DNA from: Pseudomonadales bacterium | Lineage (GTDB): Bacteria; Patescibacteriota; Microgenomatia; UBA1400; PJMF01 | Reading direction: 5' to 3' | NCBI GenBank assembly: GCA_020632235.1 | Contig: JACKFY010000003.1 | Span: forward strand, 94,139-158,138 | Length of the DNA stretch: 64,000 bases | The notes under the pieces: model-generated | What the model was told of the DNA's origin: nothing | The model's input: only the letters and a program-made list of their open reading frames with translations | Databases searched by the model: none | Shown here: positions 4,007 through 60,498 of the stretch, piece after piece | How the letters are laid out: each line of letters starts with the position of its first letter | How positions within the stretch are numbered: position 1 is the first letter of the stretch | Translations under genes and position numbers: made by a program

Positions 4007-4070
4007 AGACACACAGGCAGTATACCCCAGATTTCTCTCTCTTGTGAGAGATGCAGTACAATGGAAAGTA
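4007..4070. promoter_or_regulatory. Divergent intergenic region between cca (-) and recJ (+); presumed to carry both promoters
   Basis: A 64-nt gap remains after start refinement of both genes. No explicit -35/-10 assignment was made. Confidence 0.3.
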
Positions 4071-7344: not shown

Positions 7345-7362
7345 AAGATTTAATTCAAGCTT

Positions 7363-8490: not shown

Positions 8491-8492
8491 AG

Positions 8493-19960: not shown

Positions 19961-20476
19961 ATGCCACCAGAAACACAAATTTTTGCGTTTCACGACACAT
20001 TCACTGTTGAGACGCCCCCCCCATCACTGAAGCAAATAGAGCCAACAGGGCTGTCAATAACAGAGCTGTTAAATCTTGCACGGACTGAAAACCCACACAT
20101 TGCTTTGGCGTATGGTCACTTATATCTAGATCATTGGAACCTGAGTTGTGTAGAGTTCGTGTTTTATATTCTTGAATGCTGCACGTTTGATTTTGTTGGA
20201 TCTCTCTATGATGATACATCTCCCAGCTTACCCCAGACGCTAGTGTCTTTAGGCAGGAAAAACGATGCGCCTGGAGGGCCAATAGTTGTTGCCTACTTTA
20301 GCGATGTTGGAGAAATGACTCATATGGGCATACTTATTGAGGAAGACAGAGTGCTGTCAAAATTTGGTCAGGGACGCCCTTACTACCATCAGATTGAGTA
20401 TATCCCTGAAGAATACGGCACGCAGTATGCACTTTTTTCGTATAGAGGGAGCGAGTCTGAGTGGCAAGCTTCGTAG
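19961..20476 (+). CDS. Hypothetical protein; possible papain-like (Cys...His) fold
   Basis: 171 aa. Cys pair 'YILECCTFDF' lies about 60 aa before 'GEMTHMGILIEED', spacing reminiscent of NlpC/P60 or CHAP enzymes. No signal peptide was noted. Confidence 0.3.
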   Translation: MPPETQIFAFHDTFTVETPPPSLKQIEPTGLSITELLNLARTENPHIALAYGHLYLDHWNLSCVEFVFYILECCTFDFVGSLYDDTSPSLPQTLVSLGRKNDAPGGPIVVAYFSDVGEMTHMGILIEEDRVLSKFGQGRPYYHQIEYIPEEYGTQYALFSYRGSESEWQAS

Positions 20477-45700: not shown

Positions 45701-45988
45701 ATGCTCTCCTTCTTTTCTCAAAATAAACACCTCTTTTGGTCAGCAGACATCACAAAACTAGATCTGCAAGAACACAAGCAATACATCATACATCAGGTGC
45801 TGCAGTATGGTGATCTTGAAACTATACGGATGCTCAAACAAGTTTACTCTCATAATGAATTAGTGACAACTTTCGTCGAACATCCTAGAAAAACGTATCA
45901 AGCCAAAACTTTCTCCTTTGTAAAGAAACATGTCTTGGGCATTACTTCACCACTGGATGAATCAAACTATGTCTCAGTTATTTCGTGA
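45701..45988 (+). CDS. Hypothetical protein
   Basis: 95-aa ORF with no motifs. Confidence 0.3.
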   Translation: MLSFFSQNKHLFWSADITKLDLQEHKQYIIHQVLQYGDLETIRMLKQVYSHNELVTTFVEHPRKTYQAKTFSFVKKHVLGITSPLDESNYVSVIS

Positions 45989-46112
45989 AACCGTACAACA
46001 AAAGCAACTAGAGTTACTATCCTCCATATCTATACCTACGGAAACGTACCTTACCGGAGGTACAGCATTATCATTACAGATTGGCCTCTTATCCTTATTG
46101 AATGACTAATGA
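45969..46112 (+). pseudogene. 47-codon ORF resembling the N-terminus of an AbiEii/DUF1814-type nucleotidyltransferase; likely truncated remnant
   Basis: Manual translation gives 'MSQLFRETVQQKQLELLSSISIPTETYLTGGTALSLQIGLLSLLND*'. The 'LTGGTALSL' block resembles the conserved start of AbiEii-family proteins. It terminates exactly where the AT-rich island begins. Confidence 0.3.
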
Positions 46113-46194
46113 ATATATCAGGCTGAATAAAATTTTTCGCTCTTAGTACACCTATTATTGCTTCCTTTTTTTCAAGCTGTTAGAATGAGACAGA

Positions 46195-47124
46195 ATGAAG
46201 CCAAGTCTCATAGTTACTATCCCTGCTTACAATGAAGAAGCAACGCTACCCAGTGTAATCAAGAGCATCCCAAAAACACTAAAGGGTGTTGGAAAAATTG
46301 AAGTGCTTGTCTGGAGTGACGGCTCTACTGATAACACCATCAAAGCAGCTAAAAAAGCGGGTGCCACACATGTATTTGAGAATAAAAAAAATGTAGGGTT
46401 AGCAAAAACATTTGATAGAGCAACGAAAAAAGCAGTAGAGATTGGTGCAGACATTATTGTTAACACCGATGCAGATAACCAGTATGATCAATCTGAGATA
46501 CCGTTATTACTTCAACCTATTTTAGAGCAGGGAGCCGACATGGTAAATGGCGACCGCCAAGTAGAAAAACTGGAGCATATGCCATTGGCCAAGAAGTACG
46601 GTAACATGCTGGGGAGCTGGACAATACGCTGGCTGACGGGCGTTCACCTTAATGATGCTAGCAGTGGCTTTCGCGCGTATACAAAGGAGGCGATAGAAAG
46701 CTTTGATCTTCTTTCCTCCCACACCTATACTCATGAGACGATCATTCAAGCTGCGTTCAAAGACCTTCTCATTCATGAAGTGCCGGTTACGTTCAAAAAG
46801 CGACATGGCAGCGGCTCCAAACTGATCTCAAGCGTGTGGTCACACATCAAAAAATCGGGCGCGACGATTGTGCGCACCATCCTCATGTACCGGGCATTTA
46901 AGGTATTATCGATGATTGGCTTGACGCTGTGCTTGATTGGATGTCTGTTTATGCTGCGGTTTCTCTACTTTTATCTTACTGACGCCGGGAGTGGACACGT
47001 ACAGTCCCTCATTTTCGCCTCAGTATTGATCAGCATGGGGTTTAACACTATTATGTTGGGGGTGATTGCAGACCTTATTGCGGTGAATAGAAAGCTACTT
47101 GAAAAAAAAGTTAGTACAGAATGA
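46195..47124 (+). CDS. Polyprenyl-phosphate hexosyltransferase (GtrB/DPM1-like GT2)
   Basis: 'LIVTIPAYNEEATLPSVIKSIP...VLVWSDGSTDNT' and 'NTDADNQYD', plus two C-terminal TM helices typical of GtrB. Confidence 0.8.
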   Translation: MKPSLIVTIPAYNEEATLPSVIKSIPKTLKGVGKIEVLVWSDGSTDNTIKAAKKAGATHVFENKKNVGLAKTFDRATKKAVEIGADIIVNTDADNQYDQSEIPLLLQPILEQGADMVNGDRQVEKLEHMPLAKKYGNMLGSWTIRWLTGVHLNDASSGFRAYTKEAIESFDLLSSHTYTHETIIQAAFKDLLIHEVPVTFKKRHGSGSKLISSVWSHIKKSGATIVRTILMYRAFKVLSMIGLTLCLIGCLFMLRFLYFYLTDAGSGHVQSLIFASVLISMGFNTIMLGVIADLIAVNRKLLEKKVSTE

Positions 47125-48200
47125 AGAACGTTGCTCTAATTGGTCCCTCAAGCACACTTTTCAAAGGTGGAATTACACATTTTACAGAAGAACTATATAA
47201 TATTTTGAGTAAAAAAGATGATGTTGTTATAGATTTCATACCATTTACAAGAAACTATCCGCCTCTTTTATACAAAGGGTCACAGCCCAGCGGGAAAATA
47301 CAAAAAGGATGGGACTGGCTCAATCCTCTTTCATATATACAAGTAGCAAAAAGGATAAAGACACTTAACGCTGATATTGTAATTTTACAATGGTGGACTT
47401 TTTTTTGGGGTATTCCATACTTATTTCTATTATTAATTATGAAGCTCTTCAAAACAGATGTACAAAAGCATATTGTAATTCACAATGTCTATGACCATGA
47501 ATGCAGCGCTTTATCAAAGCTATTTTCAAAAATAGTCCTACCATTTTTCGACTTTATATATCGTGTATTACAGCAAGGAGAATATGACAAACTAGCAAAA
47601 TTGCTAAGAGATAAGTCAAAAATAAAACTACAACAAATGCCTGTATTCAATATGTTCAAAAAAAAACCACATAGCATTGTTTATAAAAAGAAATCAGCTG
47701 ATGAAAAAATTATGCTTTTTTTCGGACATGTAAGGCCATACAAAGGATTAGACTTACTTATTGAATCACTTTCAAAACTGAACAAAAATGATTTTGCATT
47801 TCATTTACTCGTTGCGGGAGAATTTTGGAATGATAAAGAAGCGTATATTAAACAAATAAAAAAATATAATCTAGAAGATTATATAACACTTTTTGATAAA
47901 TATATCCCTGATGATGAAGTTCCGAATTACTTCAATAGTGCTGATGCAGTAATTATGCCTTACAAAAAAGCTACCGGTACTGCAGTTTCTAAAGTTGCTC
48001 ACTTTTTTAACAAACCAATAATAGCCACACCCGTGGGTGATTTGGCTCAAAGCTCGCATTTTGTCGCAGAATCTACCAGTATCAATGATTTTGTTAAAGT
48101 ATTGAAAAGATTCTTTAAATATAAAAACATTAGACCAAATAAAAGCAAAATTAATAATACAACTTGGAAAATCTACACAAAGTCATTACTATCAATATAG
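47121..48200 (+). CDS. GT-B fold glycosyltransferase (GT4-like)
   Basis: 'FFGHVRPYKGLDLLIES...LLVAGEF...ADAVIMPYKKATGTAVSKVAHFFNKPIIATPVGDL' shows GT1/GT4 C-domain topology. Confidence 0.55.
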   Translation: MKNVALIGPSSTLFKGGITHFTEELYNILSKKDDVVIDFIPFTRNYPPLLYKGSQPSGKIQKGWDWLNPLSYIQVAKRIKTLNADIVILQWWTFFWGIPYLFLLLIMKLFKTDVQKHIVIHNVYDHECSALSKLFSKIVLPFFDFIYRVLQQGEYDKLAKLLRDKSKIKLQQMPVFNMFKKKPHSIVYKKKSADEKIMLFFGHVRPYKGLDLLIESLSKLNKNDFAFHLLVAGEFWNDKEAYIKQIKKYNLEDYITLFDKYIPDDEVPNYFNSADAVIMPYKKATGTAVSKVAHFFNKPIIATPVGDLAQSSHFVAESTSINDFVKVLKRFFKYKNIRPNKSKINNTTWKIYTKSLLSI

Positions 48201-48232
48201 TATAACCAAATAAAGATTTTCAAAATGTTAAT

Positions 48233-48964
48233 ATGAAAGGATATGGAATGAAAATTAAATACAGTGATAAAGATTTCAAAAGTTTTTACAAAAAAGACAA
48301 GCATGCTAAATCATATGATATTAAAAGGTCATCTACTCTAAAAAAAAGAATTGTCAGATCACTAGAGAGATACACCGCGACATTATTTCTACGCAAAGAC
48401 TCAAAGATAATTGAGGTTGGTGTGGGAACAGGCTTCATTACAGAACGCATCATAAAATACGGAACAGTATTTGGTATTGACACATCAAATGTGATGGTTC
48501 AAGAGCTGAAAAATAAGATTACAAACAACAGTCTATCATTAAAAAATATGTCATTATATGACAAACTACCTAGCAAGAAGTTTGATTACGCAATTTCATA
48601 TAGAGTTTTGATGCATTTAAATGAGAACAATATTATAAAAGGATTGAACAATCTGGAAAAGAGTCTAAAAGATTCAGGATTAGTTGTTGTTGATATACCT
48701 AGAAAATCATTGTTTAAAGACCTTGTTCAATTTCTAAAGAAAATATTTGTTCCTGGTGAAGAAGTACACAACTACACATACAATGAGTCTCAAATATATA
48801 GAATGGTGAATAAAACAGAAAATTTGAAAATTAAGACTCTATTAGCCATTGATCACGTGTGGCTATTTTTACCACTATATTTGGTATTCAACTCTTTCAA
48901 AGATAATGATTATCTTAAAAGACTAATATTAATGATTGAAAGGAAGCTAAATATATTTTTATAG
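48233..48964 (+). CDS. Class I SAM-dependent methyltransferase
   Basis: Motif I 'IIEVGVGTGFITERII'. Confidence 0.7.
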   Translation: MKGYGMKIKYSDKDFKSFYKKDKHAKSYDIKRSSTLKKRIVRSLERYTATLFLRKDSKIIEVGVGTGFITERIIKYGTVFGIDTSNVMVQELKNKITNNSLSLKNMSLYDKLPSKKFDYAISYRVLMHLNENNIIKGLNNLEKSLKDSGLVVVDIPRKSLFKDLVQFLKKIFVPGEEVHNYTYNESQIYRMVNKTENLKIKTLLAIDHVWLFLPLYLVFNSFKDNDYLKRLILMIERKLNIFL

Positions 48965-49392
48965 CTTCAGTACAAGATGGATAGTAATATGCGAGAAACA
49001 GTAGATCAAGAACTATACTTATTTCTTGGTATAGATCTTGTTAAGCCTTATGATGAAAAAATAGTCAAAATTGTTGAAAAAATAACAAAAGAACTATCAC
49101 TAAAAATAAGGAGTGGCAGATAATTAATCTGCAAAAGAATAAAAAAAAGAATAAACAATGATAAGATAGTAACTATAGATAAAACCGACAATGTTTTTAA
49201 TAAATTTACTTTGCTAATAAAACTTATATATAGTATTGTAAAAATACGCTTCAAAAGCCCTCAAAAAAAAATCAATATTAATATAATTTGGTCGGGATTC
49301 AGAGTTGCAGAGTTGCTAATATGGGTTGTTTGTAAGTTGTTGAGTATTAAGATCACTTATACAGTTGTGACACGAAAACAAACGGGTCATTT

Positions 49393-50067
49393 TTGAATAT
49401 TTATAACGCAATAATATTTTTATCACAAGATCTTTATCTGAGTTGGAGAGGCAAAGATAGTTTAAAAAATTTTAGAATTATTCATCCTACACCTGAATTA
49501 GAAACAAAAGTAACAAAAAAGGGTAAATACATTCTTTTTGTAACAGTTCCTATTTTTGAAAAAAACTTTAAGAAAAGAGGAGTAGAAAACTTTTTTAGAC
49601 TTGCAGGGTATCTTAATAAAAACAGTGATTATAAGTTGCTTGTACTAAATCGATGGGTTGAAGGCGCGCACATCTTAGAGGAATTCAAACTAAAATATTC
49701 ATGTTACAATACTAAAATTTTAAGCAAATATGAGAAAAATATTTCACAATTCTATAGAAATGCCCTTGTATTGATAAACTTAGATGAAGGTTCAGATACA
49801 CCCCAGTTTCCCCTTAGCGTAGCTGAAGCTATTGCTTGTAGTTGCCCTATTGTAGCAGTAAGTGACAAATGGCTGATAAATAAAGTTCATAGTGCTATGG
49901 CGGGAATAATATCTAATAATTCTGTTGACGAGTTGGTAAGCGCAATAGATAAAATTAGCACTAGCATTTTAGATTACAAAAATAATGCTCATGAACTGTC
50001 AAAGCAATTATTTTCAACAACAATGCATAGTAAATACTCTGACTACTTAATAGAAATCAATAAGTGA
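49393..50067 (+). CDS. GT1-family C-terminal-domain-like protein (possibly truncated glycosyltransferase)
   Basis: 'NALVLINLDEGSDTPQFPLSVAEAIACSCPIVAVSDKW' resembles a GT-B C-domain. Only 224 aa. Upstream 48965-49392 is an AT-rich non-coding-looking stretch. Confidence 0.4.
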   Translation: MNIYNAIIFLSQDLYLSWRGKDSLKNFRIIHPTPELETKVTKKGKYILFVTVPIFEKNFKKRGVENFFRLAGYLNKNSDYKLLVLNRWVEGAHILEEFKLKYSCYNTKILSKYEKNISQFYRNALVLINLDEGSDTPQFPLSVAEAIACSCPIVAVSDKWLINKVHSAMAGIISNNSVDELVSAIDKISTSILDYKNNAHELSKQLFSTTMHSKYSDYLIEINK

Positions 50068-50942
50068 TGTCTACATATAAAATAATTTACCAATTAGTTA
50101 AAAGAATGCTTCTGATTATTTCTTTAGTATTGGTTATGTTGTTCTTAATGAATAACCCATCACTAGTTTCAGACATAGTATATAAAATTGGATTTTTTAA
50201 CTCTTTACTCATTATAGTTGTATTAATGATTAACGTTGCAATTTCATACTATAGAATTCAGCTTATCTTAAAACTTTTGAATTGTAATATTAGTACAAAT
50301 TTACTATTAAGAGAGTACTCAAAATCAATTATAATGAGATACTTGCCTGGAGGCATATGGGATCACGCTTCTCTAGTTGCTTCGCTGAAAGAATACACAA
50401 AGTCATCATTTAAAACACTTTCACTGGTTCCAACGTTGAATGTTATTTCCTTGATAATAATTGGAGTTTTTTCTTTCTTTTACTTTTACATCTCACTAAT
50501 GAAGTTATCATTTATCATCGGAACCATTGTATTATTGATTATTACGCTTATTTATTTTAATTTCTACAATTTGAAAAAGATTATTTATGGTAGGAGATTG
50601 TTTATGAATCAGTTAATTTTTTTATTCACACTAACTATTATTCAACTAGCTACTGTAGGTTTTGCATTTTTCATATGTATGAATGCAGTTGTAAAAGCTG
50701 AGTTTAGTATGAATTTACACTGGCTTGATGTAACAAACGCATTTATAGCATCATGGGTGGCGGGAGTACTAGCTATTCCATTTCCAAGTGGTATTGGGGT
50801 TAGAGAGTTTGTGATTACTCATTTACTTAGTAGTACATCACTACCAACGAAATACATTGTAATGGTTTCATTAGTCTTTAGAGTATATATTATAATAAGA
50901 GATATTGCTTTTTTCTTTTTTTCACGAATTTTTTATAAATAA
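50064..50942 (+). CDS. Polytopic membrane protein (possibly flippase-like / LPG-synthase-TM-like)
   Basis: 292 aa with about 8 TM helices and a 'RYLPGGIWD' loop. 4-nt overlap with the previous gene. Confidence 0.4.
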   Translation: MMSTYKIIYQLVKRMLLIISLVLVMLFLMNNPSLVSDIVYKIGFFNSLLIIVVLMINVAISYYRIQLILKLLNCNISTNLLLREYSKSIIMRYLPGGIWDHASLVASLKEYTKSSFKTLSLVPTLNVISLIIIGVFSFFYFYISLMKLSFIIGTIVLLIITLIYFNFYNLKKIIYGRRLFMNQLIFLFTLTIIQLATVGFAFFICMNAVVKAEFSMNLHWLDVTNAFIASWVAGVLAIPFPSGIGVREFVITHLLSSTSLPTKYIVMVSLVFRVYIIIRDIAFFFFSRIFYK

Positions 50943-50975
50943 GAAACCTATCAAATTATCTATAGTTAGCACTTA

Positions 50976-51533
50976 TCAAAACGCTTTACCCAACTCTAAC
51001 TGCCTTTTTGTCCACTCCGCCTTAATATTTTGACGCACAGGTCTTTGCACTCTCACTCTGTTCTCCCCTAGTCTTTGCAAAGATCTACCCGGATATCTAA
51101 AACGAGTGCCTCGAAGCGCTCTGTTTACCACCCTCACAAAACTGCTCATTTTTGCAAGCACTCTATCTGAGCGTGTGTCATCCAGTGAGTAACCAAGTGC
51201 TAGCATGAAGTTGACTTTTTCTTCCAGTGTGGAGAAGACAATAACGCCAGCTATATCTGCAATAGCTTTCTGCACCTCTTTTTTACTCATGTCTGGGAAT
51301 ATATTTTCTGAGGCAACAGTATACTTATCTGCGACTCTGGTCTTTTCTTCTGCCAATAGGAGTACAATAATTGAGATGAGAAAATCATCTGCTTGTGAAT
51401 ATAAAACAATCTCTTCTTGCTGCGCAGCGCCTCCCATAACTTCGGGGGTTATGCCTTCATCAAAGTACTCACTGCTGCGTGGGTCTTGTTGCCAGGCTTC
51501 TCGGATTTTTTGTGCTAGTTCGTAATTGTGCAT
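50976..51533 (-). CDS. Hypothetical protein
   Basis: 185-aa ORF, more GC-rich than its neighbours, with a basic C-terminus. No motifs. Confidence 0.35.
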   Translation of the reverse strand: MHNYELAQKIREAWQQDPRSSEYFDEGITPEVMGGAAQQEEIVLYSQADDFLISIIVLLLAEEKTRVADKYTVASENIFPDMSKKEVQKAIADIAGVIVFSTLEEKVNFMLALGYSLDDTRSDRVLAKMSSFVRVVNRALRGTRFRYPGRSLQRLGENRVRVQRPVRQNIKAEWTKRQLELGKAF

Positions 51534-51544
51534 AAGTAATACAA

Positions 51545-52102
51545 TTAATAATTTTTATTGATTATATCAAACAGTATTTCCATAGTATTATCAGCATATA
51601 CTCTATAGATAGGCTCATCATTCTCATTCAGATACGCGCTCTCTGTGTTGAAGCTCGCCCCATCTAAAGAATACATTTGCCAGCAGAGGTGTATATTTTC
51701 TCTCTGGTATGTTTTTGGAATATCTACACCATTAAAAAAGTTTTCTTGTAAATGATCTGCCTCAAATATTTTTGTTATTTTTTTATCACCATTCTTTTCA
51801 AAAAAATCAACACTTATAGTATTGGTATTATCTCTTTGATACGTTGCAAACTGCCATTCAATATGTGTTGGTATATAGTCTGTTGCTACAAAACAATCTG
51901 TAACAATGGTATTACCCAAGAGGGCGTTGCTCACAGAGCGCTCACCATAATTTCTGGTCGAGTACTCTGGTAGAGCATATACATCGCCAGATATAAGAAC
52001 GTATACTAGCGTGCAAAAAATACCAAAAATAGCCATCAATTCTATATATTTTTTCATTAGAAGTAGATCCAAACTACTATCTCTCGTATAAATATGCGCC
52101 AC
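51545..52102 (-). CDS. Hypothetical exported protein
   Basis: N-terminal TM/signal 'MAIFGIFCTLVYVLISG'. Confidence 0.35.
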   Translation of the reverse strand: MAHIYTRDSSLDLLLMKKYIELMAIFGIFCTLVYVLISGDVYALPEYSTRNYGERSVSNALLGNTIVTDCFVATDYIPTHIEWQFATYQRDNTNTISVDFFEKNGDKKITKIFEADHLQENFFNGVDIPKTYQRENIHLCWQMYSLDGASFNTESAYLNENDEPIYRVYADNTMEILFDIINKNY

Positions 52103-53511
52103 TCAATAAGAAAAAGTACTACCATACTAGCAAGCATAGCTACATTTTTATACTGTAGTTTCTGTAGGATACTATTATAACCGATCGCCATAGCTGTAAA
52201 AATAGGAATGCTAGAGTAAAGATAATACCTTCCCGACAATGCCCTTATCCAGCCGTCCCAGAAAAATGCAGACATATAATTTTTATAGATCAATATTGAA
52301 AACAACAGTAGAAAAGGAATGAAATACACCCAGTATCTTTTATTTTTAAGCAGTGCGGGTATCGCTGCTATGAGAAGTAATCCGTACGTTCCCATAAAAA
52401 TAAAAAGAATATCTCTTCGTAGTGGTTTTTGACCCCAGCCAAAGACACCGATATAGTTGCGCACCCATTGATAGCCGAGATTTAACCCGTTGGGACTGAA
52501 AACAACCTTCACTCCCTGCCAAGTATATGGCTCATAATCAAAATCATCATACGTCATTTGATGTCGATCTTGTACGATCTCTCCAGCCTCGCCAATTTCT
52601 GCTTTACTAATATCTGCGCTCACCAAATCGCCCGTAACAACGTAGTTTTGTGCGTAGTACCACCCGCCAATGAGCAGACTACTAACGGTATATAACAATA
52701 CGGCAGTGATGAGCTTTCGGTCCAGCAACTTTTTGCCATGAGACATGAGTAATTTGACAAGAACGAGCGGCATCATAAATACAGCAAACAACTTTGTGCA
52801 AAGTGCCAATCCCGTTACTACTGAGAGCTGTATGACTGTGCGTAAGTTATATGTGTTAGTTTTGGCTACAAGATAAAATAGTAATCCGCACAAGAGTGTC
52901 AACAAAATATCATTTGAGGCGTACCCTGCGGCATGAAAAAAAGTAGGCCAACTGCCAAACAAAATGATTGCGATGAGTGATGTTGTGTGGTTTTTAGTTA
53001 CTTCTTTTGCAAATCGATATATGACATAGAGCGTGGCTGTGGCTATAAATGCATTGATAATGCGCAGCATACATACAATTTGGAGTGATGAAGCGCTATC
53101 CCTAAAAATGGCATACACTGGCGTCATGAGGGCGTAGTACAGGGTGGATGCTGCACGATCCAGTTTCTACTCCCCCTCTTCTGTCGCAGTTGCTGAAACC
53201 ATCCAATCTGCATCTTCTTGCAAAAACTCTCGTGCATAATTAAGATTCATCTGCCTCAAGTTTGTAGAACCAGGAGCAATCAATGTGGGGTTTGGTTTTG
53301 TTGTGTGCACATACAGCCTTTCTTTTCTGCGTTCTAGCGACTCAATGTAACCGATGTGCCTCGTCTCGTCTGGCCCCATCCACGGTGGAGTAACAAGAAT
53401 ATATAATAGTACTTTCAAAAAAAACAATAGCAGCACAATAGCTACTTGTACTCTGTGCTTTTGAAAAAAAGCTTTGCTATTAGATAGATAGTGTGAAGTC
53501 TTCTTTTTCAT
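52057..53511 (-). pseudogene. GT-C-type (PMT_2/ArnT-like) membrane glycosyltransferase interrupted by a single in-frame TAG
   Basis: The N-terminal fragment 53511..53167 has a TM helix plus a 'PPWMGPDETRH' loop. The C-terminal fragment 53127..52057 is polytopic and includes 'GLALCTKLFAVFMMPLVL'. The two are in the same frame, separated only by TAG (53169-53167) and 13 sense codons. Confidence 0.45.
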
Positions 53512-55423
53512 GGGTTAGATTGATATTATAATACGGATCTCTACTTACTATATTACCCCATTTTGCCATAAAAATTTGCTGTTCAGCATATAGTTGAGAC
53601 TGATCTCTTGTTGCGTTTTCAGATTTCGGGATAGACTCTCCTTCTTTGTGTATGAGTTGGGCATGAGGGGTGAACACATTTCTGGTACCAATCTTTTCAG
53701 TAAGTCTGAGACAAAAATCTACATCGTTATATGCTATGGCAAGCTTTTCGTTAAATCCATTTACTTTTTCAAACTTCGTCTTTTTTACCATTAAACATGC
53801 TGCCGTTACAAACGAATAATTTTTGACGGATAAAGTATCTACGGTAACAAATCCATTTTTTGGCTTCGTTTTGTGCGCGTGTCCCGCTATTTTTATAGCA
53901 TCATCATATCCTATACCCAAAACTCCTCCATAGTGCTGAATGGTGTAATCAGGATAAAAAAGGGCGGCGCCCACAGCCCCAATTTCTTTTCTTTGGGCGT
54001 GTTGCAGCATTTTTTCAATCCAGTCTCTACTAATTATTTCTGTATCATTATTTAAAAAAAGTAGGTACTCCCCCGTTGCTTTTGCAGCACCATAATTATT
54101 GGCAGCAGAATAGTTAAATGCTTTACTCCATGTGTATGCTTTGAGTGGTAGTTTCTTTTTATATTGTGTATATACTTCACTAGTGTTGGTACTCGTACTG
54201 CCCGTATCAATGACAACAACTTCATAGTTTTGATATCTTGTTTTTTGGATAGATCTCAGGCACGCGCGCATAAGATTGGCTTTATCTTTATTGAGGATGA
54301 TAATGCTCACCTTTGGTTTGTTCATTACTGCATACTGCATGCTCCATACACCTAAGTATTTTGTATTTTTTACACGTCCTTTTACACCTCTTCTCTGAAG
54401 GTCATCCCGCAGCACTATTTCTTGGTTGACATAGGCATATGGTTTTACTTTGCCACTACTCTTTTCTGACGCAGTTGAAGTTTCAGATTTTCGCCAGCTG
54501 TATAGTATCGTTGGAATGTGGTGTATATACTGTGAAGTTTTATATGCATTTTTTTTATTGTTTAGTATTATTGAATCTTTTTTATTTATTTCTGTAGTTG
54601 CTCGCAAAAATAAATCCCAATCCTGTGCCCCCTCTGTTCCTAGTCGAAAACCGCCAACTTTCTCTACCAAGCTTTTGCGAAGCGTGGCAAAGTGAGTAAT
54701 GTAGTTGATTGACCTGAGATAATCGGGGCTCCAGTCTGGCTTAAAAAAAGGATCAATATGGTCTCTGCCATTTTCGGCAATTTTATCTTCATCGGTATAG
54801 ATAAAATCTATTTTTTTATTATCATTGAGTGCAGCAACAACTTCATATAACGCATTGGGCCATAACACATCATCATGATCCATGAGCGATACAAACCTTC
54901 CCGTTGCCAATGATAGTGCGTCATTTGAGGCATTGCAGATATGACCATTTTCTGTGCGAAAGATGCTTTTAATTCTTTTATCCTGGCTTTGATATTCGAG
55001 AATGATGTCACGTACTTTTTGATCTGGAGAGTTATCATCTACTATACACAGTTCCCAGTTTTCATATGACTGATCAATCACAGAGTTAATGCACGCGCGC
55101 AAAAATGTTCCTTTTGTATTATATGTTGGAAGTAAGATTGAAATAAGAGGCTGATATTCAAGGGTGGTTATATGCTGTCTTTGTGCATTAAGTGTTTTTT
55201 TGTCTGGATAGTATTTTTTTACCCATCGTTTGTATTGTTTATTGACGTAATCATTGTGGTTTAGCTGATACCAGTGTTCAGTTATTTTGTCGATAACAGC
55301 AGTAATACCACCTCTTTTATACAATGCACATGCCTTATCAACTTTAGTTTTATTGGTTATATGCTCTATTGAGTAGCGAAAAAACTCTTTTGTGAAGTGG
55401 AAGTATCTAACAACAATCATCAT
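53480..55423 (-). CDS. Tandem-GT2 (two GT-A domains) glycosyltransferase
   Basis: First domain 'ISILLPTYNTKGTFLRACINSVIDQSYENWELCIVDDNSPD'. Second domain 'VSIIILNKDKANLMRACLRSIQKTRYQNYEVVVIDTGST'. Confidence 0.8.
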   Translation of the reverse strand: MMIVVRYFHFTKEFFRYSIEHITNKTKVDKACALYKRGGITAVIDKITEHWYQLNHNDYVNKQYKRWVKKYYPDKKTLNAQRQHITTLEYQPLISILLPTYNTKGTFLRACINSVIDQSYENWELCIVDDNSPDQKVRDIILEYQSQDKRIKSIFRTENGHICNASNDALSLATGRFVSLMDHDDVLWPNALYEVVAALNDNKKIDFIYTDEDKIAENGRDHIDPFFKPDWSPDYLRSINYITHFATLRKSLVEKVGGFRLGTEGAQDWDLFLRATTEINKKDSIILNNKKNAYKTSQYIHHIPTILYSWRKSETSTASEKSSGKVKPYAYVNQEIVLRDDLQRRGVKGRVKNTKYLGVWSMQYAVMNKPKVSIIILNKDKANLMRACLRSIQKTRYQNYEVVVIDTGSTSTNTSEVYTQYKKKLPLKAYTWSKAFNYSAANNYGAAKATGEYLLFLNNDTEIISRDWIEKMLQHAQRKEIGAVGAALFYPDYTIQHYGGVLGIGYDDAIKIAGHAHKTKPKNGFVTVDTLSVKNYSFVTAACLMVKKTKFEKVNGFNEKLAIAYNDVDFCLRLTEKIGTRNVFTPHAQLIHKEGESIPKSENATRDQSQLYAEQQIFMAKWGNIVSRDPYYNINLTHEKEDFTLSI

Positions 55424-56964
55424 ATTTTGGGTGGTTTGTAAACAAATAGGTTTTTTATTTCATCTGTATTCTTATTTTTGAAAAGCTCTATGACTTTTTT
55501 ACGACTTATATTTTTATGAATATGGAGAGTTTTTACCATAGATTGCCACAGAATAAAAAACCTTGAGTGATAGATGTTGTTTAGTTCTTTGTTTCTTGTC
55601 TTTATTACAGCTTCTTGTTCACTAATTTTTTTCTGGTAATTATCAACCATCTTACTAAACTTAATTTTTTCCTCCCTAAATAACGCATGGTTGATGGAGT
55701 GTATTTTTTGCAAAATCTGATTGTATCCAAACGTCGTACTAAGGGTTTTTTCTCTAAACACACCATTGTTAATTTTAAAAGTAGTCAATTGTGAAGTAAA
55801 ATTATTTGACAATGCGCCCTCAACAGGAGACTGATTGATAAGAAAAAGACTCTCATTTATTTTAGAGTCGTGATTGTAATCACCTATGTGAAGATGTGCG
55901 CACTCATCTGCATTGAAAACCGCCATACTCTTTGGGTGTAGCGCCATGACCTCAGCATCATCATGCTTTTCATTTAGGAGTGTTGGAATTATATTTTTGA
56001 GTGAAAATGGTTTGTCATTAAAAGACTTAGTTTGGTCAGGAGAAATTATCATTAGTGGAACATGCACTAATGATGGACGGCAGTATATCCCGTGAGCAAA
56101 AAAGATGTTGTCTTCCCCCAACAGCTCACCATGGTCGCTGGTAATAGCAATTTTTGATCTTTTTGCTATTCCCATATTTATAATATTTTTTACAAAAATA
56201 TTTATTTGCTTGTCCATTTCATAAATGCCTTGGTCGTATTGCGCAACATAATAATTAACATCTTGCTCAAAATCATCACCAAACTCATTAAATGCTATCT
56301 GATATTTAGGAGCAACAGAAAAATTCTGTAATACAGCATCATCTATGCCAGTAAAAGCATCGTTGACAATTTTATCGATTTTTCTTGTATCTTTTTTAAA
56401 GATTTTATCATCTCGAAATCTACTTTTTTTATTTTTTGTGTAAGGGCCATGCGCCTCCATTAAATGGAAGCACAAAAATAATTTTTTTTGTTTATTTTTC
56501 TCTATATACTTGGCGCCTGCATCCAATATCTCACTACTTGGCGCATATAGTGCATTAAAACGGCCTGTTTCTTTTTGTGATAGTTCATCCCAAAAGTGAT
56601 CAAAAAAATCAGAAAGGTTTGTGTGAGACCTCGATGTTACAAAGTTTCCTGTAAAGAAAGCAGTTGTATAGCCACGCTCTTTTAATAAATCTAGGTTAGG
56701 GAAGTCTTTGGTAGTAAATTTTTTATTTTGGTCAAAAAATGGAGTCATCTCTGTGGGATACTTTCCACCAAGTATTGAGGGAACAGAGGCAAATGTATAA
56801 GAACTAGGTGAAATAGCACGTTGGTATACCGTTCCATTTTTACTGAGTTTATCTATACACGATGTTGTTTGTCGATCATAACCATAAAGACTCATGTGGT
56901 CTTTTCGAACAGCATCAAGGATAAATAAAAAGATATACTGAGGGTGAGAATCCATGTCTACCAA
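55420..56964 (-). CDS. Sulfatase-like / alkaline-phosphatase-superfamily hydrolase or transferase
   Basis: N-terminal 'IFLFILDAVRKDHMSLYGYDRQTT...AISPSSYTFASVPSILGG' matches the sulfatase N-domain layout. A Ser sits at the Cys/Ser-x-P-x-R position. Confidence 0.55.
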   Translation of the reverse strand: MVDMDSHPQYIFLFILDAVRKDHMSLYGYDRQTTSCIDKLSKNGTVYQRAISPSSYTFASVPSILGGKYPTEMTPFFDQNKKFTTKDFPNLDLLKERGYTTAFFTGNFVTSRSHTNLSDFFDHFWDELSQKETGRFNALYAPSSEILDAGAKYIEKNKQKKLFLCFHLMEAHGPYTKNKKSRFRDDKIFKKDTRKIDKIVNDAFTGIDDAVLQNFSVAPKYQIAFNEFGDDFEQDVNYYVAQYDQGIYEMDKQINIFVKNIINMGIAKRSKIAITSDHGELLGEDNIFFAHGIYCRPSLVHVPLMIISPDQTKSFNDKPFSLKNIIPTLLNEKHDDAEVMALHPKSMAVFNADECAHLHIGDYNHDSKINESLFLINQSPVEGALSNNFTSQLTTFKINNGVFREKTLSTTFGYNQILQKIHSINHALFREEKIKFSKMVDNYQKKISEQEAVIKTRNKELNNIYHSRFFILWQSMVKTLHIHKNISRKKVIELFKNKNTDEIKNLFVYKPPKI

Positions 56965-57632
56965 TATCCTAACTTCCTCAACTTCTCCATCTTATCTTCT
57001 TTTGTTGCTTCTCTACCTGCTCGCTCAGAAGCATGTGGGTCTGCAACGGGGTGAGTAAACGGCGCTTCACCCAGAGATTTATACCCTTTGTCATACAGAT
57101 CAACATACGGCACATCATATTTTTTTATGTACTCCCAAATATCATCTATCGTAAATTGAAGTATGGGGTGCACTCTACTGTGGCTTCTTCTCTTCGAGAT
57201 GACTGTTTCTTTTGATCGTGCTTCATGTTCGTCCCAGCGTATGCCAGAAACAAACACCCTGATGTCATATTCACTGATCGCGTAGTTGATAGCGTTGATT
57301 TTTGCTATGCGCATGATCTCCATTTTTTCCTCATCGTTGGTAGATGCGTTGTATGATTGCAGATCTTCAGGCAAGTGCTTCAGCCAAATCAAATCTACAC
57401 TCCAATCTTTTTTTATTTTTTTGATGAAAGTGTATATTTCTGGAAACTCAATAGTTGAGTCATTAAAAAGTACACGAAACGGTATTTCGCCGTACATTTC
57501 TTTGATAATATGCATGATAACGGTGGAGTCTTTGCCGCCTGTCCATGCAACCACAATTTCTTCGTCCTTCCATTGCTGGCGTGCGCTTTCTATACCATCT
57601 TGCGCTTGTTTAATTTTTTGTTTGAGTGACAT
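56958..57632 (-). CDS. PAPS-reductase-family (phosphoadenosine phosphosulfate reductase-like) protein
   Basis: 'IVVAWTGGKDSTVIMHIIKEMYG' PP-loop (SGGKDS-like) of the PAPS_reduct family. 224 aa. Confidence 0.7.
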   Translation of the reverse strand: MSLKQKIKQAQDGIESARQQWKDEEIVVAWTGGKDSTVIMHIIKEMYGEIPFRVLFNDSTIEFPEIYTFIKKIKKDWSVDLIWLKHLPEDLQSYNASTNDEEKMEIMRIAKINAINYAISEYDIRVFVSGIRWDEHEARSKETVISKRRSHSRVHPILQFTIDDIWEYIKKYDVPYVDLYDKGYKSLGEAPFTHPVADPHASERAGREATKEDKMEKLRKLGYW

Positions 57633-57670
57633 ACTTCCTTAATTCTAACGAACTACATTTTCTTTTGACA

Positions 57671-58399
57671 TTACCCAAAATACTTTGCTACTACTTTTTT
57701 TGCCCCTCCACTATCTTTCACCTCTCCCCCTTCCAGCCACAATGCATGCTCTGTATGCTCACGAATTAAATCAGGTGAGTGACTAACTACTACTATAGTA
57801 ACCTTATTTTTTTTCATTTCTTCTATTCTTGTGACACACTTTCTCTGAAACTCATGATCCCCCACTGCCAAAATCTCATCAATCAGCAAAATTTCTGGAT
57901 CTGTGTGAATAGCCACCGCAAAAGCGAGCCTGAGGTACATGCCACTACTGTAATGCTTGATAGGCTGGTCTATAAATTCCCATAGCTCTGCAAAATCAAC
58001 AATAGTTTTAAATTTTTTCTCTATCTCTGCCCTAGTCATCCCTAAGATCACCCCATTGAGAAAAACGTTTTCTCTGCCCGTGAGTTCTGGATGAAACCCA
58101 GCACCCAACTCAATAAGGGGCGCAATTCTGCCAGTGACAGAAATACTTCCCGAGGTGGGCTGGGTTACACCAGCTATTAACTTTAAAAGTGTTGACTTAC
58201 CTGATCCGTTAGGGCCAATAATACCAATGCTTTCACCTTTTTTAACTTCTAGATCAATATTTTTGACTGCCCAAAATGTTTCATGAGTTTTGTTTCTACC
58301 CAAAAGAGCTGGTATAAACTCTTTGAGCGTGCGCTGATGTTGCTTGTAATAGAGCTTTGAGACGTTCTGGATGGTGATGGCGGAGGCTAATTTGTTCAT
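57671..58399 (-). CDS. ABC transporter ATP-binding protein (Wzt/TagH-type polysaccharide exporter)
   Basis: Walker A 'IGIIGPNGSGKSTLLKLIAG', signature 'YSSGMYLRLAFA', Walker B 'LLIDEILAVGD'. Confidence 0.85.
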   Translation of the reverse strand: MNKLASAITIQNVSKLYYKQHQRTLKEFIPALLGRNKTHETFWAVKNIDLEVKKGESIGIIGPNGSGKSTLLKLIAGVTQPTSGSISVTGRIAPLIELGAGFHPELTGRENVFLNGVILGMTRAEIEKKFKTIVDFAELWEFIDQPIKHYSSGMYLRLAFAVAIHTDPEILLIDEILAVGDHEFQRKCVTRIEEMKKNKVTIVVVSHSPDLIREHTEHALWLEGGEVKDSGGAKKVVAKYFG

Positions 58400-59622
58400 G
58401 CTTTATTTGTTTCTGTAACATAGGATGCCACTGCAGAGCCAACGTCCCAAGGAAAAATCACCTTCTGCAAATGGAGTGGATTATCGCCTACCACCGCCCA
58501 GTCGCTTACTCCAGCAGCCTGTGCGCGTTTTTTTGTTGCATCTAGATTGTGAGTAGAAACAGTTTGTTTTACCTCTAGTCCTAAAGAACCCTCAACAATA
58601 AAATCAATTTCTTGACCAGATCGTGTTTGGTAGTAGGTAAGTTGATGCTTTCTTATATTCATAAACACTGCATTTTCAAGTAATTGACCAGCAGAAATAC
58701 TAGAAGAAACAGCCTGGGCAAAACCAACATCTTCAAAATATACCTTATCGAAAGAAGAAACCTGGTTATCAATGCTTGATTTTTGTGACAGCAGAGATAT
58801 AGCATATGTTTGCGTGAGACACTCAAGATACTCATATATCTGCTCTCTTCGTAACTTCATAACACTTGAGAGCGTTTGGACATTAACCCGCTGCCCAATG
58901 CGCTGTGTTAATAACCTAAGTAAGTTGTAGAGGTGGGTGGTATCAGCAAAGTCGGCAAATGTTACTACATCAATCTGAAAGTATGAGGTAACAATATCTT
59001 CAAGTAGTTTCTGTTTTACTTCACTATTATCTTGTAATACAACCTCTGGAAACCCTCCGTATTGGGTATACTCACGAAATAGCGAAGACGGGAGTGAATC
59101 TGCTGGTAATAGCGCGCTATGATCTTGATACTCTTGCCAGGAAAGATTATTTTGCAGCACCTTCTCTCCTTTAAATCGGCAAAACTCTTGAAATGATAAA
59201 GGGTGGAGCTCAAACAGTAGTTTTCGACCAGCCAAGCTCTGATTAAAGTGATTTTTTATGTAGTAGCTACTTGATCCCGTCACAATAAATTTTATATGAT
59301 AGGTGTCATAGAGATATTTAATGACAGAAGGAGCATTCTTGACAAATTGCAGTTCATCTATAAGCACATATGATGGGCGAGAAACGTCTAAACCTCTACT
59401 TTCAAGGCTGACTCGCACCGTTTCATAGTTGCTTGATTCCCAAATCAAACGCTCTTGCAGGTTTTCAAAATCGATAAATACTTTGTTTTTCGTTTGTATG
59501 TAATCAAGTAACTGTAACAACACAGTGGTTTTTCCTACTCGGCGCATACCTGTAACCACTAATACTTGTGGTATCTCAATGTACTCTAGTAAGGTGTGGT
59601 ACATGTCTCTGTGTATTTGCAT
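58396..59622 (-). CDS. AAA+ ATPase with DUF4143 C-terminal domain
   Basis: 'VLVVTGMRRVGKTTVLLQL' Walker A, 'YVLIDELQ' Walker B, then a DUF4143-type C-terminus. 4-nt overlap with wzt. Confidence 0.65.
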   Translation of the reverse strand: MQIHRDMYHTLLEYIEIPQVLVVTGMRRVGKTTVLLQLLDYIQTKNKVFIDFENLQERLIWESSNYETVRVSLESRGLDVSRPSYVLIDELQFVKNAPSVIKYLYDTYHIKFIVTGSSSYYIKNHFNQSLAGRKLLFELHPLSFQEFCRFKGEKVLQNNLSWQEYQDHSALLPADSLPSSLFREYTQYGGFPEVVLQDNSEVKQKLLEDIVTSYFQIDVVTFADFADTTHLYNLLRLLTQRIGQRVNVQTLSSVMKLRREQIYEYLECLTQTYAISLLSQKSSIDNQVSSFDKVYFEDVGFAQAVSSSISAGQLLENAVFMNIRKHQLTYYQTRSGQEIDFIVEGSLGLEVKQTVSTHNLDATKKRAQAAGVSDWAVVGDNPLHLQKVIFPWDVGSAVASYVTETNKA

Positions 59623-59718: not shown

Positions 59719-60498
59719 CTACACAACATCGGCAAACACTCCTTCCAATTTTTTAAAAAACCAGTAGCCAAGCATTAAAACACTGGTAGAAACCACTGCC
59801 GCAATGCCCAGACTCATGTAGTTTGGCTCTCCGGCCGCCAAGATCACCTGGCGATAGGCGTTGATAAAAACCGCCATTGGGTTGATCTGGAATATCCAGC
59901 GGTACCGATCAGGAAACATCTCGGTGGGGTAGATGACGGGCGTTAGGTACATCCAGACTATAAGACCAAGTCCCAACACATACTGAATGTCTCGATACAA
60001 AAGATTGGCTGCTGCTAAAAACAATGAAAGACCATAGGTAAATATGAGTTGTATGCCAAAGATAGGCACCACCCACACAATGTGCCAGGAAAGAGAGATG
60101 TGATAGTAGATAAGAAACACGACCAACACCGAGAGGGCGAGAAAGAGATCAACCACTTTGGCCAAGATAGCACTCAAAACAAATACTTCTCGGGGAAAGT
60201 AGATCTTAGTGATCAAACCCGCGTTCGCGACCAAACTACCTGTTGCACCGGCAAGTGCGCCGGAAAAAAAATTCCAGGGCAACAACCCAACATACAAAAA
60301 AACAGCATACGGCACGCCAAGGCTTTCAACACGAAGAATCTTGGAAAATACAAATGCCATGACCAGCATCTGAATCAGTGGATTAAGAATCACCCAGGCA
60401 TACCCAAGGATCGACTGCTTGTAGCGTTGTTTGATCTCGCGCCAAGTCAGCTCTGAGAGTAACTCGCGGTAGGTGGTGAAAAGAGAGAAAAATTGCAT
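59719..60498 (-). CDS. ABC-2 type transporter permease (Wzm/TagG-type)
   Basis: 259 aa with 6 TM helices and an ABC2_membrane-like pattern. Upstream partner of the Wzt ATPase. Confidence 0.75.
   Translation of the reverse strand: MQFFSLFTTYRELLSELTWREIKQRYKQSILGYAWVILNPLIQMLVMAFVFSKILRVESLGVPYAVFLYVGLLPWNFFSGALAGATGSLVANAGLITKIYFPREVFVLSAILAKVVDLFLALSVLVVFLIYYHISLSWHIVWVVPIFGIQLIFTYGLSLFLAAANLLYRDIQYVLGLGLIVWMYLTPVIYPTEMFPDRYRWIFQINPMAVFINAYRQVILAAGEPNYMSLGIAAVVSTSVLMLGYWFFKKLEGVFADVV

Follow-up and report, generated by a model that had tools for sequence, protein, structure and literature searches.

Which reaction is carried out by two adjoining proteins that databases name "PAPS reductase family" (PAPS, 3'-phosphoadenosine 5'-phosphosulfate) and "sulfatase-like hydrolase/transferase", when the active sites of both contradict these names? 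The question is raised by a low-GC stretch of contig JACKFY010000003.1 (assembly GCA_020632235.1), of which 64,000 nucleotides (nt), hereafter the window, were analysed. Two genes are concerned, and their products are called here the AP-like protein and the PP-loop protein:

55420..56964, minus strand: sulfatase-fold protein of the alkaline phosphatase (AP) superfamily with a Thr nucleophile (PF00884 Sulfatase, 6.6e-37)
56958..57632, minus strand: PP-loop protein of the PAPS_reduct fold, 224 amino acids (aa), Cys-free (PF01507 PAPS_reduct, 9.6e-37)

The comparisons given below support the two proteins as one real functional unit with a link to the assembly of a glycan. The low-GC segment is predicted to be part of an ABC-transporter-dependent (Wzm/Wzt) surface-glycan locus in which the pair would sulfate the glycan by way of adenosine 5'-phosphosulfate (APS), a reading that is favoured tentatively and is given somewhat less than an even chance.

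Pairing and fusion in related loci

Related loci (27, numbered with the prefix L) were surveyed using tblastn, hidden Markov model (HMM) scans and precomputed Pfam tables, and pairing was counted over the 22 loci from Patescibacteria and Nitrospira. An AP-superfamily partner was adjacent or fused to the PP-loop gene in 21 of these 22, the exception being L014. The AP-superfamily gene adjoins the PP-loop gene in the window and in L001-L007, L019, L021, L025 and L026; a gene of the nucleotide pyrophosphatase/phosphodiesterase (NPP) type (PF01663) takes the place of the partner in L008, L013, L016 and L027; and both domains are encoded by one open reading frame (ORF) in L009-L012 and in L015, a Nitrospira metagenome-assembled genome (MAG). 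The divergent partners of L021 and L027 were missed by the AP-like profile and were found in the precomputed Pfam tables. A search using the 670-aa fusion of L011 as query retrieved 29 clusters with PF00884 and PF01507 in one chain, plus two distant PF00884 fusions and two PF01663+PF01507 fusions, for a total of at least 33 fused clusters. Among the 40 best family members in the representative library, 16 were 640-850 aa long with the PP-loop domain at the C-terminus, and the long representatives tested (6 of 6) were fusions of AP and PAPS_reduct domains, some with DUF4214 between them. Every partner keeps the metal-binding Asp and the Thr/Ser nucleophile (Ser in two members), and those of the PF00884 type also keep DHGE...H. 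Two AP subfamilies are thus fused to the same PP-loop domain, which is strong evidence of a shared pathway. Sulfur or phospho group transfer by the pair, as suggested by the first-pass annotation (a model's description of the DNA from its letters), is the most plausible chemistry.

Identity among relatives is 62-81% for the PP-loop protein and 23-49% for the AP-like partner, and this conservation of the one and divergence of the other fit a constant donor-forming enzyme combined with an acceptor-specific transferase. The region had also been described as variable in the manner of a serotype locus, which is true of its glycosyltransferase (GT) content, differing between relatives, and of the AP-like protein, but not of Wzm, Wzt and the PP-loop protein, which form a conserved core with 62-81% identity.

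In three loci from Chisholm- and Gottesmanbacteria (L014 6327-7874, L016 8442-11330, L027 8001-11006), a gene for an S-adenosylmethionine (SAM)-dependent methyltransferase overlaps within the PP-loop module. L016 and L027 have a three-gene module with the methyltransferase and the NPP-type protein, and L014 has the methyltransferase and no AP partner; the three-gene variant may make a methylated substituent. In L018 (7268-10801, a Desulfobacterales MAG), a distant (32%) PAPS_reduct homologue is found two genes downstream of an arylsulfotransferase (ASST, PF05935), which is an unrelated second pairing of the fold with sulfuryl-transfer chemistry.

The AP-like protein

The AlphaFold2 (AF2) model of the AP-like protein comprises a catalytic domain (residues ~1-330, beginning at residue ~6), a beta subdomain, and a 54-residue helix (409-462) with shorter helices. 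The catalytic domain shows the alpha/beta fold of sulfatases, including the DHG motif and the N-terminal metal-binding Asp. Where iduronate-2-sulfatase has its modified Cys, the alignment places the Thr of SSYT(F/L)ASVPS, and no C/S-x-P-x-R is present; this residue (Thr54) does not vary among 24 relatives, and the fused forms have Thr or Ser there. The name sulfatase was not upheld, an invariant Thr being found where the formylglycine precursor belongs. Thr cannot support the formylglycine elimination step of sulfatases, and hydrolytic sulfatase activity is therefore unlikely.

Counterparts of the MCR-1 catalytic residues were established by HMM alignment to the MCR-1 catalytic domain (sequence checked against 6li5_A), and all are invariant in the AP-like family: D14=E246, T54=T285, H169=H395, D274=D465, H275=H466, E277=E468 and H288=H478, the acidic metal ligand being Asp (D14) where MCR-1 has Glu. 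The Zn1 residues of MCR-1 are E246, T285, D465 and H466, and H395, H478 and E468 are conserved among phosphoethanolamine (PEtN) transferases and variable in sulfatases (PMC5216409). In overall sequence and fold, the AP-like protein is nearer to sulfatases than to PEtN transferases, and GacH, LtaS and EptC are clear structural relatives. Its scores are far from the NCBIfam cut-offs for arylsulfatase (61.7 vs 481), NF028537 (53.5 vs 500) and EptA (49.5 vs 561). No signal peptide or transmembrane (TM) segment was detected in the protein (maximum 19-residue hydropathy 1.15-1.66, in a core strand), and the AF2 model has no TM helices.

On these features the AP-like protein is predicted to be a cytoplasmic sulfuryl or phosphoryl transferase with a Thr nucleophile on a sulfatase scaffold, and not a hydrolase. 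Sulfate monoesters and phosphate diesters are both monoanionic, the basis of promiscuity in the AP superfamily, so that the active site alone does not decide between sulfate and a phospho-alcohol.

AP-like proteins often carry a C-terminal DUF4214 domain or, in fusions, have it between their AP and PP-loop domains (P0373, P0379, P0384, P0371; L021 9346-10815; L026 8706-10181), and the protein of the window has its long helix where relatives carry DUF4214. A WbdD-like amphipathic membrane helix at the C-terminus was considered and was not supported, the hydrophobic moment being low; chain termination is kept as an analogy only.

The PP-loop protein

The PAPS_reduct fold of the 224-aa protein is indicated by PF01507, by the AF2 model (mean predicted local distance difference test score 88.8) and by Foldseek matches to PAPS/APS reductases, flavin adenine dinucleotide (FAD) synthase and CysD, with 2oq2, 4bwv, 6vpu and 2goy as top matches. 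The protein contains no Cys, 20 of 23 relatives contain none either, and there is no conserved Cys column. Catalysis by APS/PAPS reductases needs the Cys of ECG(L/I)H, which forms an S-sulfocysteine intermediate (PMC8173546). With neither this motif nor any Cys, the protein cannot form S-sulfocysteine and is not a thiol-dependent APS/PAPS reductase, and the reductase name has to be abandoned. The first-pass annotation had itself allowed for an unrelated PP-loop ATPase with no sulfur chemistry; the protein is indeed no reductase, but its nearest characterised relatives handle APS or sulfate.

Invariant positions in the family are AWTGGKDST, K111, E203-R204-x-G206-R207 and a C-terminal GYW, and the mean column identity of the alignment is 68%. 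The PP-loop TGGKDS is canonical, compared with SIGKDS in CysD (1zun_A) and GGKDC in FAD synthase, and E. coli CysH has SSSFGIQA at this place. The family profile scores CysD at 97/92 bits vs 67 bits for CysH (reference sequences checked against PDB 2o8v_A, 100%, and 1zun_A). At its C-terminal end the family has the invariant pattern SER-x-GR..KE..M..LR..GYW, and the corresponding tail SERAGRE..KMEKLRKLGYW could be aligned with the very end of CysD, SERQGRV..SMEEKKRQGYF, at a score that was reached by only 4-18 of 2000-5000 shuffles; direct local alignment and shuffles were used here since MAFFT placed the family tail on the middle of CysD. In the true CysH-CysD-CysN operon of L020, the PP-loop protein of the window matches CysD better than the neighbouring CysH (tblastn). 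The equivalents of Lys111 and R204-x-G-R207 contact the sulfate of APS in APS reductases (PMC8173546). The NCBIfam reductase equivalogs remain under their cut-offs (PRK02090 CysH, 103.9 vs 154 bits; TIGR02057, 90.4 vs 254), as does CysD PRK05253 (94.8 bits, cut-off 195), and there is a weak match to WbuX (6e-4). The motif ER-x-GR was considered as a diagnostic of sulfate binding and was downgraded to the mark of an anion site, since an Arg pair corresponding to it seems to bind phosphate in flavin mononucleotide (FMN) adenylyltransferases. The protein is predicted to be an ATP-dependent adenylyltransferase ("mini-CysD").

Exporter and glycan context

Together with abutting or overlapping genes of the same strand, the pair forms the series wzm, AAA_14, wzt, PP-loop, AP-like, double GT2 and GT-C, the other members being:

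59719..60498, minus strand: Wzm ABC-2 permease (PF01061, 2.8e-20; GC 0.462, back to normal)
58396..59622, minus strand: AAA_14/DUF4143 ATPase (PF13173, 1.7e-30; PF13635, 1.4e-20; GC 0.39)
57671..58399, minus strand: Wzt/TagH-type ABC exporter ATPase, 242 aa (PF00005, 1.5e-24)
53480..55423, minus strand: double GT2, 647 aa, two GT2 modules (PF00535, 1e-51, in two stretches; PF10111, 2.9e-21)
52057..53511, minus strand: GT-C, PMT_2/ArnT-like (PF13231, 1.7e-07), split into 114-aa and 356-aa ORFs

An ABC-2 permease (PF01061) and its cognate ATPase (PF00005) are thus found in one operon with glycosyltransferases. The best NCBIfam matches of Wzt are TagH (2.7e-64) and galactan Wzt (3.3e-59), both below cut-offs, and that of Wzm is galactan Wzm (3e-24). 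L001-L003 keep the synteny Wzm-Wzt-PP-loop-AP; their first three proteins are 64-69% identical to those of the window (Wzt 64-69%, Wzm 65-67%), the AP-like protein only 23-36%. The AAA_14/DUF4143 gene, which lies between wzm and wzt and overlaps the latter by 4 nt, looks like an insertion into the exporter operon, wzm and wzt being directly adjacent in L001-L003. No carbohydrate-binding module (CBM) was found on the Wzt of the window, whose 242 aa hold the ABC domain only. Glycosyltransferases flank the pair in L021 and L025, and a Wzx-like flippase or methyltransferases flank it elsewhere.

The double GT2, likely the polymerising enzyme, has its start overlapping the stop of the AP-like gene by 4 nt. 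Whether the AP-like and PP-loop genes overlap, as the first-pass annotation had it, depends on the start: with TTG at 56964 (514 aa) they overlap by 7 nt, but with ATG at 56955 (511 aa, the version of the public record) they are separated by a 2-nt gap.

Proposed mechanism and alternatives

The transferred group, its donor and its acceptor are what we infer from these data. The Cys-free PP-loop protein would act as a minimal CysD-type adenylyltransferase (ATP + sulfate -> APS + pyrophosphate); the metal-activated Thr of the soluble sulfatase-fold enzyme would then attack the sulfur of APS, releasing AMP and leaving a covalent sulfo-Thr; and a hydroxyl of the polyprenol-linked glycan would displace the Thr to give the sulfated glycan. 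The acceptor would be built by the adjacent double GT2 on the cytoplasmic face, and the polymer would be exported afterwards by Wzm/Wzt. Adjacency or fusion would channel APS, which is thermodynamically unfavourable to form, and the benefit of such channelling would explain the fusions; neither PAPS nor APS kinase would be needed. More generally, the PP-loop enzyme would adenylate an oxyanion, the Thr of the AP-like enzyme would displace AMP, and a glycan hydroxyl would take up the group before export. Sulfate is favoured by the resemblance of the PP-loop protein to CysD, by the scaffold of its partner, which is sulfatase-like, by the lack of a phospho-alcohol precursor gene in the neighbourhoods examined, and by the precedent of Agl30/Agl31, sulfatase-like proteins of Halobacterium salinarum. 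That the locus encodes a self-contained, PAPS-independent carbohydrate sulfation, in which a minimal CysD hands APS to a Thr sulfotransferase, and that this is a new enzyme class widespread in Microgenomates, is possible and is put forward with reserve.

Several observations weigh against sulfation through APS. CysD alone is a poor ATP sulfurylase, and no CysN-like GTPase (GTP_EFTU) was found in the scanned ORFs of the window or beside the relatives, while the true CysD of L020 has one; likewise, no sulfate transporter or pyrophosphatase was found in the window. Foldseek with the PP-loop model does not separate its reductase, CysD and FAD-synthase relatives, and Lys111 and R-x-G-R probably form an anion site that is not sulfate-specific. 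The active site of the AP-like protein matches that of phosphoethanolamine transferases residue for residue, with His replacing the sulfate-binding Lys, and the known enzymes with this Thr/His/His/Glu constellation transfer phosphodiesters, not sulfate. Some lineages have NPP-type partners, and the methyltransferases of L014, L016 and L027 recall methyl-phosphate caps.

Several of these features speak for an alternative in which a phospho-alcohol (phosphodiester) is transferred: the PP-loop enzyme would make ADP-X (ATP + X-phosphate -> ADP-X + pyrophosphate) and the cytoplasmic Thr enzyme would put X-phosphate on the glycan, soluble ADP-X replacing the phospholipid donor. This combines two known models, eukaryotic FMN adenylyltransferase and the transferases EptA, MCR-1, LtaS and GacH, and X-phosphate could be glycerol phosphate, or a phosphate methylated later. 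It accounts for the invariance of all MCR-1 catalytic residues, for the Thr (Ser in two) at the nucleophile position of every partner examined, for the existence of NPP-type partners and for the structural kinship with GacH, LtaS and EptC; in addition, the PP-loop protein has the FAD synthases of human and yeast among its best matches by sequence and by structure. The methyltransferase beside the PP-loop gene in L014, L016 and L027 may be compared with the methyl-phosphate terminators of ABC-dependent O-antigens (PMC11231755, PMC3482155). However, no kinase or other phospho-alcohol-forming gene, and no gene related to glycerol 3-phosphate or choline, was found in the neighbourhoods examined; the characterised Thr-type transferases are all membrane-anchored, extracytoplasmic and supplied by lipid donors, unlike the AP-like protein with neither TM segment nor signal peptide; the sequence and fold of the latter are closer to sulfatases than to PEtN transferases; and the PP-loop profile scores CysD best. 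To our knowledge, ADP-activated alcohol donors have not been described for glycan decoration. We regard transfer of a phospho-alcohol as a serious but rather unlikely explanation.

The coupling of the pair is shown and its chemistry inferred, which leaves room for other reactions on the glycan, namely carboxylate adenylation with group exchange, AMP transfer via AMP-Thr, or an AP-like pyrophosphatase/phosphodiesterase that pulls or edits an adenylation. PP-loop enzymes of the WbuX/PseA type in glycan loci adenylate carbonyls, as the weak WbuX match would recall, and NPP-type enzymes normally attack the alpha-phosphate of nucleotides. Such chemistry is nonetheless improbable: the fold is specifically PAPS_reduct and not of the WbuX or asparagine-synthetase type, a separate adenylyltransferase would be superfluous for AMP transfer, and no amidotransferase or glutaminase partner was found in the loci examined. 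Still less probable is a housekeeping or salvage unit (FAD synthesis, nucleotide or cofactor turnover) that merely sits in glycan loci. The conservation of the PP-loop protein is that of a core gene, the neighbours of the pair in L026 are mostly non-glycan genes, and an archaeal homologue (L017) lies beside an FMN-dependent dehydrogenase; but in most loci the pair is again syntenic with Wzm/Wzt, glycosyltransferases or a Wzx-like flippase, the AP-like partner diverges as fast as glycan-specific genes, and in the window the pair overlaps or abuts within one glycan operon. Finally, the database names could be literally right, with a formylglycine sulfatase and a thioredoxin-dependent PAPS reductase for sulfur assimilation. 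PF00884 and PF01507 are well above their gathering scores and sulfatases and PAPS/APS reductases rank first among the PDB relatives, but this explanation is refuted at the sequence level by the missing Cys and the missing formylglycine motif, the NCBIfam equivalogs are far below cut-offs, and the sulfatase-like protein has no signal peptide, so that hardly any likelihood is left to it.

Other genes of the low-GC block

All gene calls of the first-pass annotation agree with the Pfam and NCBIfam scans. Beyond the exporter operon, the block and its left flank contain:

46195..47124, plus strand: GT2, polyprenyl-phosphate hexose synthase-like (AglJ/DPM/GtrB-like) (PF00535, 5.5e-19; GC 0.443, outside the sustained block)
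47121..48200, plus strand: GT4 (PF00534, 1.2e-15), first gene of the very low-GC sub-block (GC 0.308)
48233..48964, plus strand: SAM-dependent methyltransferase (PF13649 and PF08241, ~1e-11; GC 0.290)
49393..50067, plus strand: C-terminal half of a GT1/GT4 (PF00534, 5.7e-06, profile positions 12-157 only)
50064..50942, plus strand: flippase-like polytopic membrane protein, LPG_synthase_TM (PF03706, 4.6e-09; GC 0.281)
50976..51533, minus strand: 185-aa ORF, last of the minus-strand operon, no Pfam or NCBIfam match (GC 0.435)
51545..52102, minus strand: 185-aa ORF, no Pfam or NCBIfam match; a 163-aa gene is found at the matching place in the near-identical contig L023

The GT2 at 46195 matches the NCBIfam models of AglJ (6.6e-36) and of a dolichyl-phosphate hexose transferase (1.2e-26), both under curated cut-offs. 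The ORF at 49393-50067 is probably a gene remnant: it is preceded by an AT-rich gap of 430 nt with an A-run and no ORFs beyond those of 48 and 61 aa, suggesting that a GT4 gene has decayed here (48965-50067). The GT-C gene is split by one additional G (~53172; GGGGG vs GGGG) and one missing C (~53141; CCC vs CCCC), in homopolymers 31 nt apart. Its counterpart in L023, a metagenome contig 99.95% identical, is intact (484 aa) with a frame that reads HPPLYY, and the indels are either a sequencing or assembly error or a real frame-disrupted, possibly switchable allele. As to Gtr-like parts, the block and its left flank hold the GtrB/AglJ-like GT2 (46195) and the frame-disrupted PMT_2 GT-C; no GtrA-type protein was seen, an LPG_synthase_TM protein being present in its stead.

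Base composition and boundaries

GC content in 1-kb windows is 0.28-0.32 at 47-51 kb, 0.33-0.41 at 51-60 kb, and 0.45-0.52 over most of the window. The 13 genes at 47121-59622 have a median GC of 0.366 and a median GC at third codon positions (GC3) of 0.319, vs 0.476 and 0.484 for the other 46 ORFs (Mann-Whitney, p=2.9e-6 for GC and 2.5e-5 for GC3). Composition, checked gene by gene for GC and GC3, is thus not uniform, and the AT-rich shift proposed at about 46.1 kb is real, but the proposed edges (46110-57660) are off by 1-2 kb. In the fine profile, a brief dip at 45.7-46.4 kb (0.36-0.39) is followed by a recovery to 0.46-0.50 within the first GT2 gene (46195-47124); the lasting drop begins at ~47.1 kb, and GC reaches 0.46 or more again only at ~59.65 kb, not at 57.66 kb. 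The block is heterogeneous, with a plus-strand sub-block at 47121-50942 (GC 0.28-0.31) and a minus-strand operon at 50976-59622 (GC 0.33-0.44). Five plus-strand genes (46195-50942) converge on the long minus-strand operon, which runs from 63704 down to 50976.

The region had been called an island. Its composition is deviant, but no tRNA gene and no Rfam match was found in the window, and it is embedded in a glycan region of normal GC (25-46 and 60-64 kb). The wzt and PP-loop genes, which belong to the core conserved in relatives, lie within the low-GC stretch. No integrase or transposase was found among the Pfam-scanned ORFs of the window, with no aimed search for integrases or flanking repeats. 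Support for calling it an island, understood as a mobile insertion, is weak.

Other low-GC patches are present in the window at 5.8-9.3 kb and ~19-22 kb. The block at 5828-9263 (plus strand; GC 0.34-0.37, GC3 0.23-0.29) encodes a 275-aa protein with no assigned family, a Peptidase_S51, an LD-carboxypeptidase (S66) and a methyltransferase, and adjoins a class II tRNA synthetase (D/K/N type) of normal GC. Two plus-strand ORFs, 19428-19949 (GC 0.33) and 21286-22239 (GC 0.36), have no Pfam match, and the ORFs between them (19961-21268) likewise have no family. At the left edge of the composition dip, a 95-aa DUF6922 protein is encoded at 45701-45988 (plus strand); the DUF6922 gene of L026 (13204-13503) has an AbiEii-like toxin gene as its neighbour, and by this analogy that of the window may be an orphan antitoxin-like gene.

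Taxonomic and genomic setting

An NCBI protein from "Candidatus Woesebacteria bacterium" has the same sequence (100% identity) as the 511-aa sulfatase-like protein, and the 224-aa PAPS-reductase-like protein is present unchanged on GCA_020429005.1 and in a Logan assembly. The latter has more than 500 homologues, nearly all from Patescibacteria/Microgenomates (Roizman-, Levy-, Gottesman-, Chisholm- and Daviesbacteria), so that the window is assigned, from its protein matches, to the candidate phyla radiation (CPR) and, more precisely, to a genome of Candidatus Woesebacteria (Microgenomates). The MAGs of L001, L003, L005, L009, L010, L012 and L013 carry the titles "Pseudomonadales" or "uncultured Gammaproteobacteria" despite Microgenomates-type genes with 52-66% identity to those of the window, and one isolate name among them contains "PATE"; these public taxonomic labels look wrong.

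According to the Pfam and NCBIfam scans, 25-64 kb of the window is a region of ~40 kb devoted mostly to glycan biosynthesis (DUF4012, ManC, several GT4, PMT_2 GT-C, a Wzy_C-like protein, GT2s, epimerases and a PIG-V-like GT-C), and the AT-rich stretch is a sub-block inside this surface-glycan region. The part upstream of it (25414-45699, normal GC) encodes the DUF4012 protein, ManC (GDP-mannose pyrophosphorylase), at least five GT4, a second PMT_2 GT-C (34066-35511), the Wzy_C-like membrane protein of 575 aa, GT2s and a dehydratase/epimerase. More than one surface polymer may be made from this region.

Comparison with known systems

Both superfamilies are already known, as is glycan decoration by AP-superfamily transferases (EptA, LtaS, GacH, Agl30/31). 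The literature searched gave no account of the PP-loop/AP-like unit, and a search for sulfatase-like sulfotransferases in bacteria returned only the Halobacterium paper discussed below. Relative to this literature, the soluble cytoplasmic Thr enzyme on a sulfatase scaffold, its obligate Cys-less CysD-like partner, the adenylate donor and the distribution in Microgenomates appear to be new. If sulfation or phospho-decoration from an adenylate donor is true, it would be a new cytoplasmic route to anionic glycans that needs neither PAPS nor a lipid donor, would widen the chemistry known for Thr-type AP-superfamily enzymes, and would give concrete insight into the almost unknown cell surfaces of the host-attached CPR bacteria. 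If the route is sulfation through APS, CPR bacteria lacking sulfate assimilation would display sulfated wall polymers. For biochemical work, suitable constructs already exist in natural fusions like P0241 (670 aa).

For the PP-loop protein, CysD of CysDN (1ZUN) is the best phmmer match in the PDB and shares the PAPS_reduct/PP-loop fold, the S/T-G-G-K-D-S loop and the C-terminal SER-x-GR...ME...GY(F/W); it differs in being ~300 aa long with two insertions and a CysN GTPase, whereas the protein of the window has 224 aa and an AP-superfamily partner. CysH reductases (2O8V, 2GOY, 2OQ2, 7LHR) have the same fold (Foldseek E ~1e-14, TM-score ~0.78) and the sulfate-contacting Lys and R-x-G-R, but they combine the Cys of ECG(L/I)H with a degenerate PP-loop, where the protein of the window is Cys-free with an intact PP-loop. 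The PAPS domain of eukaryotic FAD synthase (8ROM, 8RON, 3G5A) is a Cys-independent adenylyltransferase fold with a GGKD(C/S)T loop and LYD-x-GY-x-SLG, and it gives an example of phosphomonoester adenylation on this fold; the 8ROM construct ends just after LYD-x-GY-x-SLG, so that the tail ER-x-GR...GYW is beyond the range of that comparison. The genomic partner and context of the PP-loop protein of the window are unrelated to flavin metabolism, and no evidence of a flavin-binding region was found in it.

With MCR-1, EptA and EptC, the AP-like protein shares the acidic metal ligand, the Thr in T-x-x-S-(V/I)-P, H-x-M-x-x-HGP and DHGE-x-LGE...HG (PMC5216409), and by analogy a ping-pong transfer via a covalent Thr intermediate is expected. 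These enzymes are periplasmic with an N-terminal domain of five TM segments, unlike the predicted cytoplasmic AP-like protein with its PP-loop partner, for which a phospholipid donor is unlikely. GacH and LtaS likewise differ in being membrane-anchored and extracellular, with phosphatidylglycerol as donor and no PP-loop partner. S1 sulfatases (6HHM, 6HR5, 7LHA) have formylglycine, a Lys after DHG and a secretion signal, whereas the AP-like protein has Thr, His and no signal.

The WbdD/WbbB terminators (PMC3482155, PMC11231755) resemble the AP-like protein as cytoplasmic modifiers beside Wzm/Wzt in which a long helix comes after the N-terminal catalytic domain, and in their systems an anionic cap (methyl-phosphate or Kdo) ends the chain. 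They differ in their much longer helix ruler and in their kinase/methyltransferase domains, the AP-like protein having a 54-residue helix and no convincing amphipathic C-terminal helix. The known terminated systems all have a cap-reading CBM on Wzt (PMC11231755), in contrast to the Wzt of the window.

An experimental precedent is that of Agl30/Agl31 of Halobacterium salinarum, which are described as sulfatase-like, one of them soluble, and as adding sulfate to the dolichol-linked N-glycan at a cytoplasmic stage; their nearest PDB structures (6HHM, BT1596) are shared with the AP-like model (PMC11980604). A text search of the same paper for "donor" and "PAPS" was empty, the paper gives no information on the nucleophile, and no sulfate-activating partner was noted in the parts consulted. 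If the pair of the window acts as proposed here, it would provide a testable donor logic for these archaeal enzymes.

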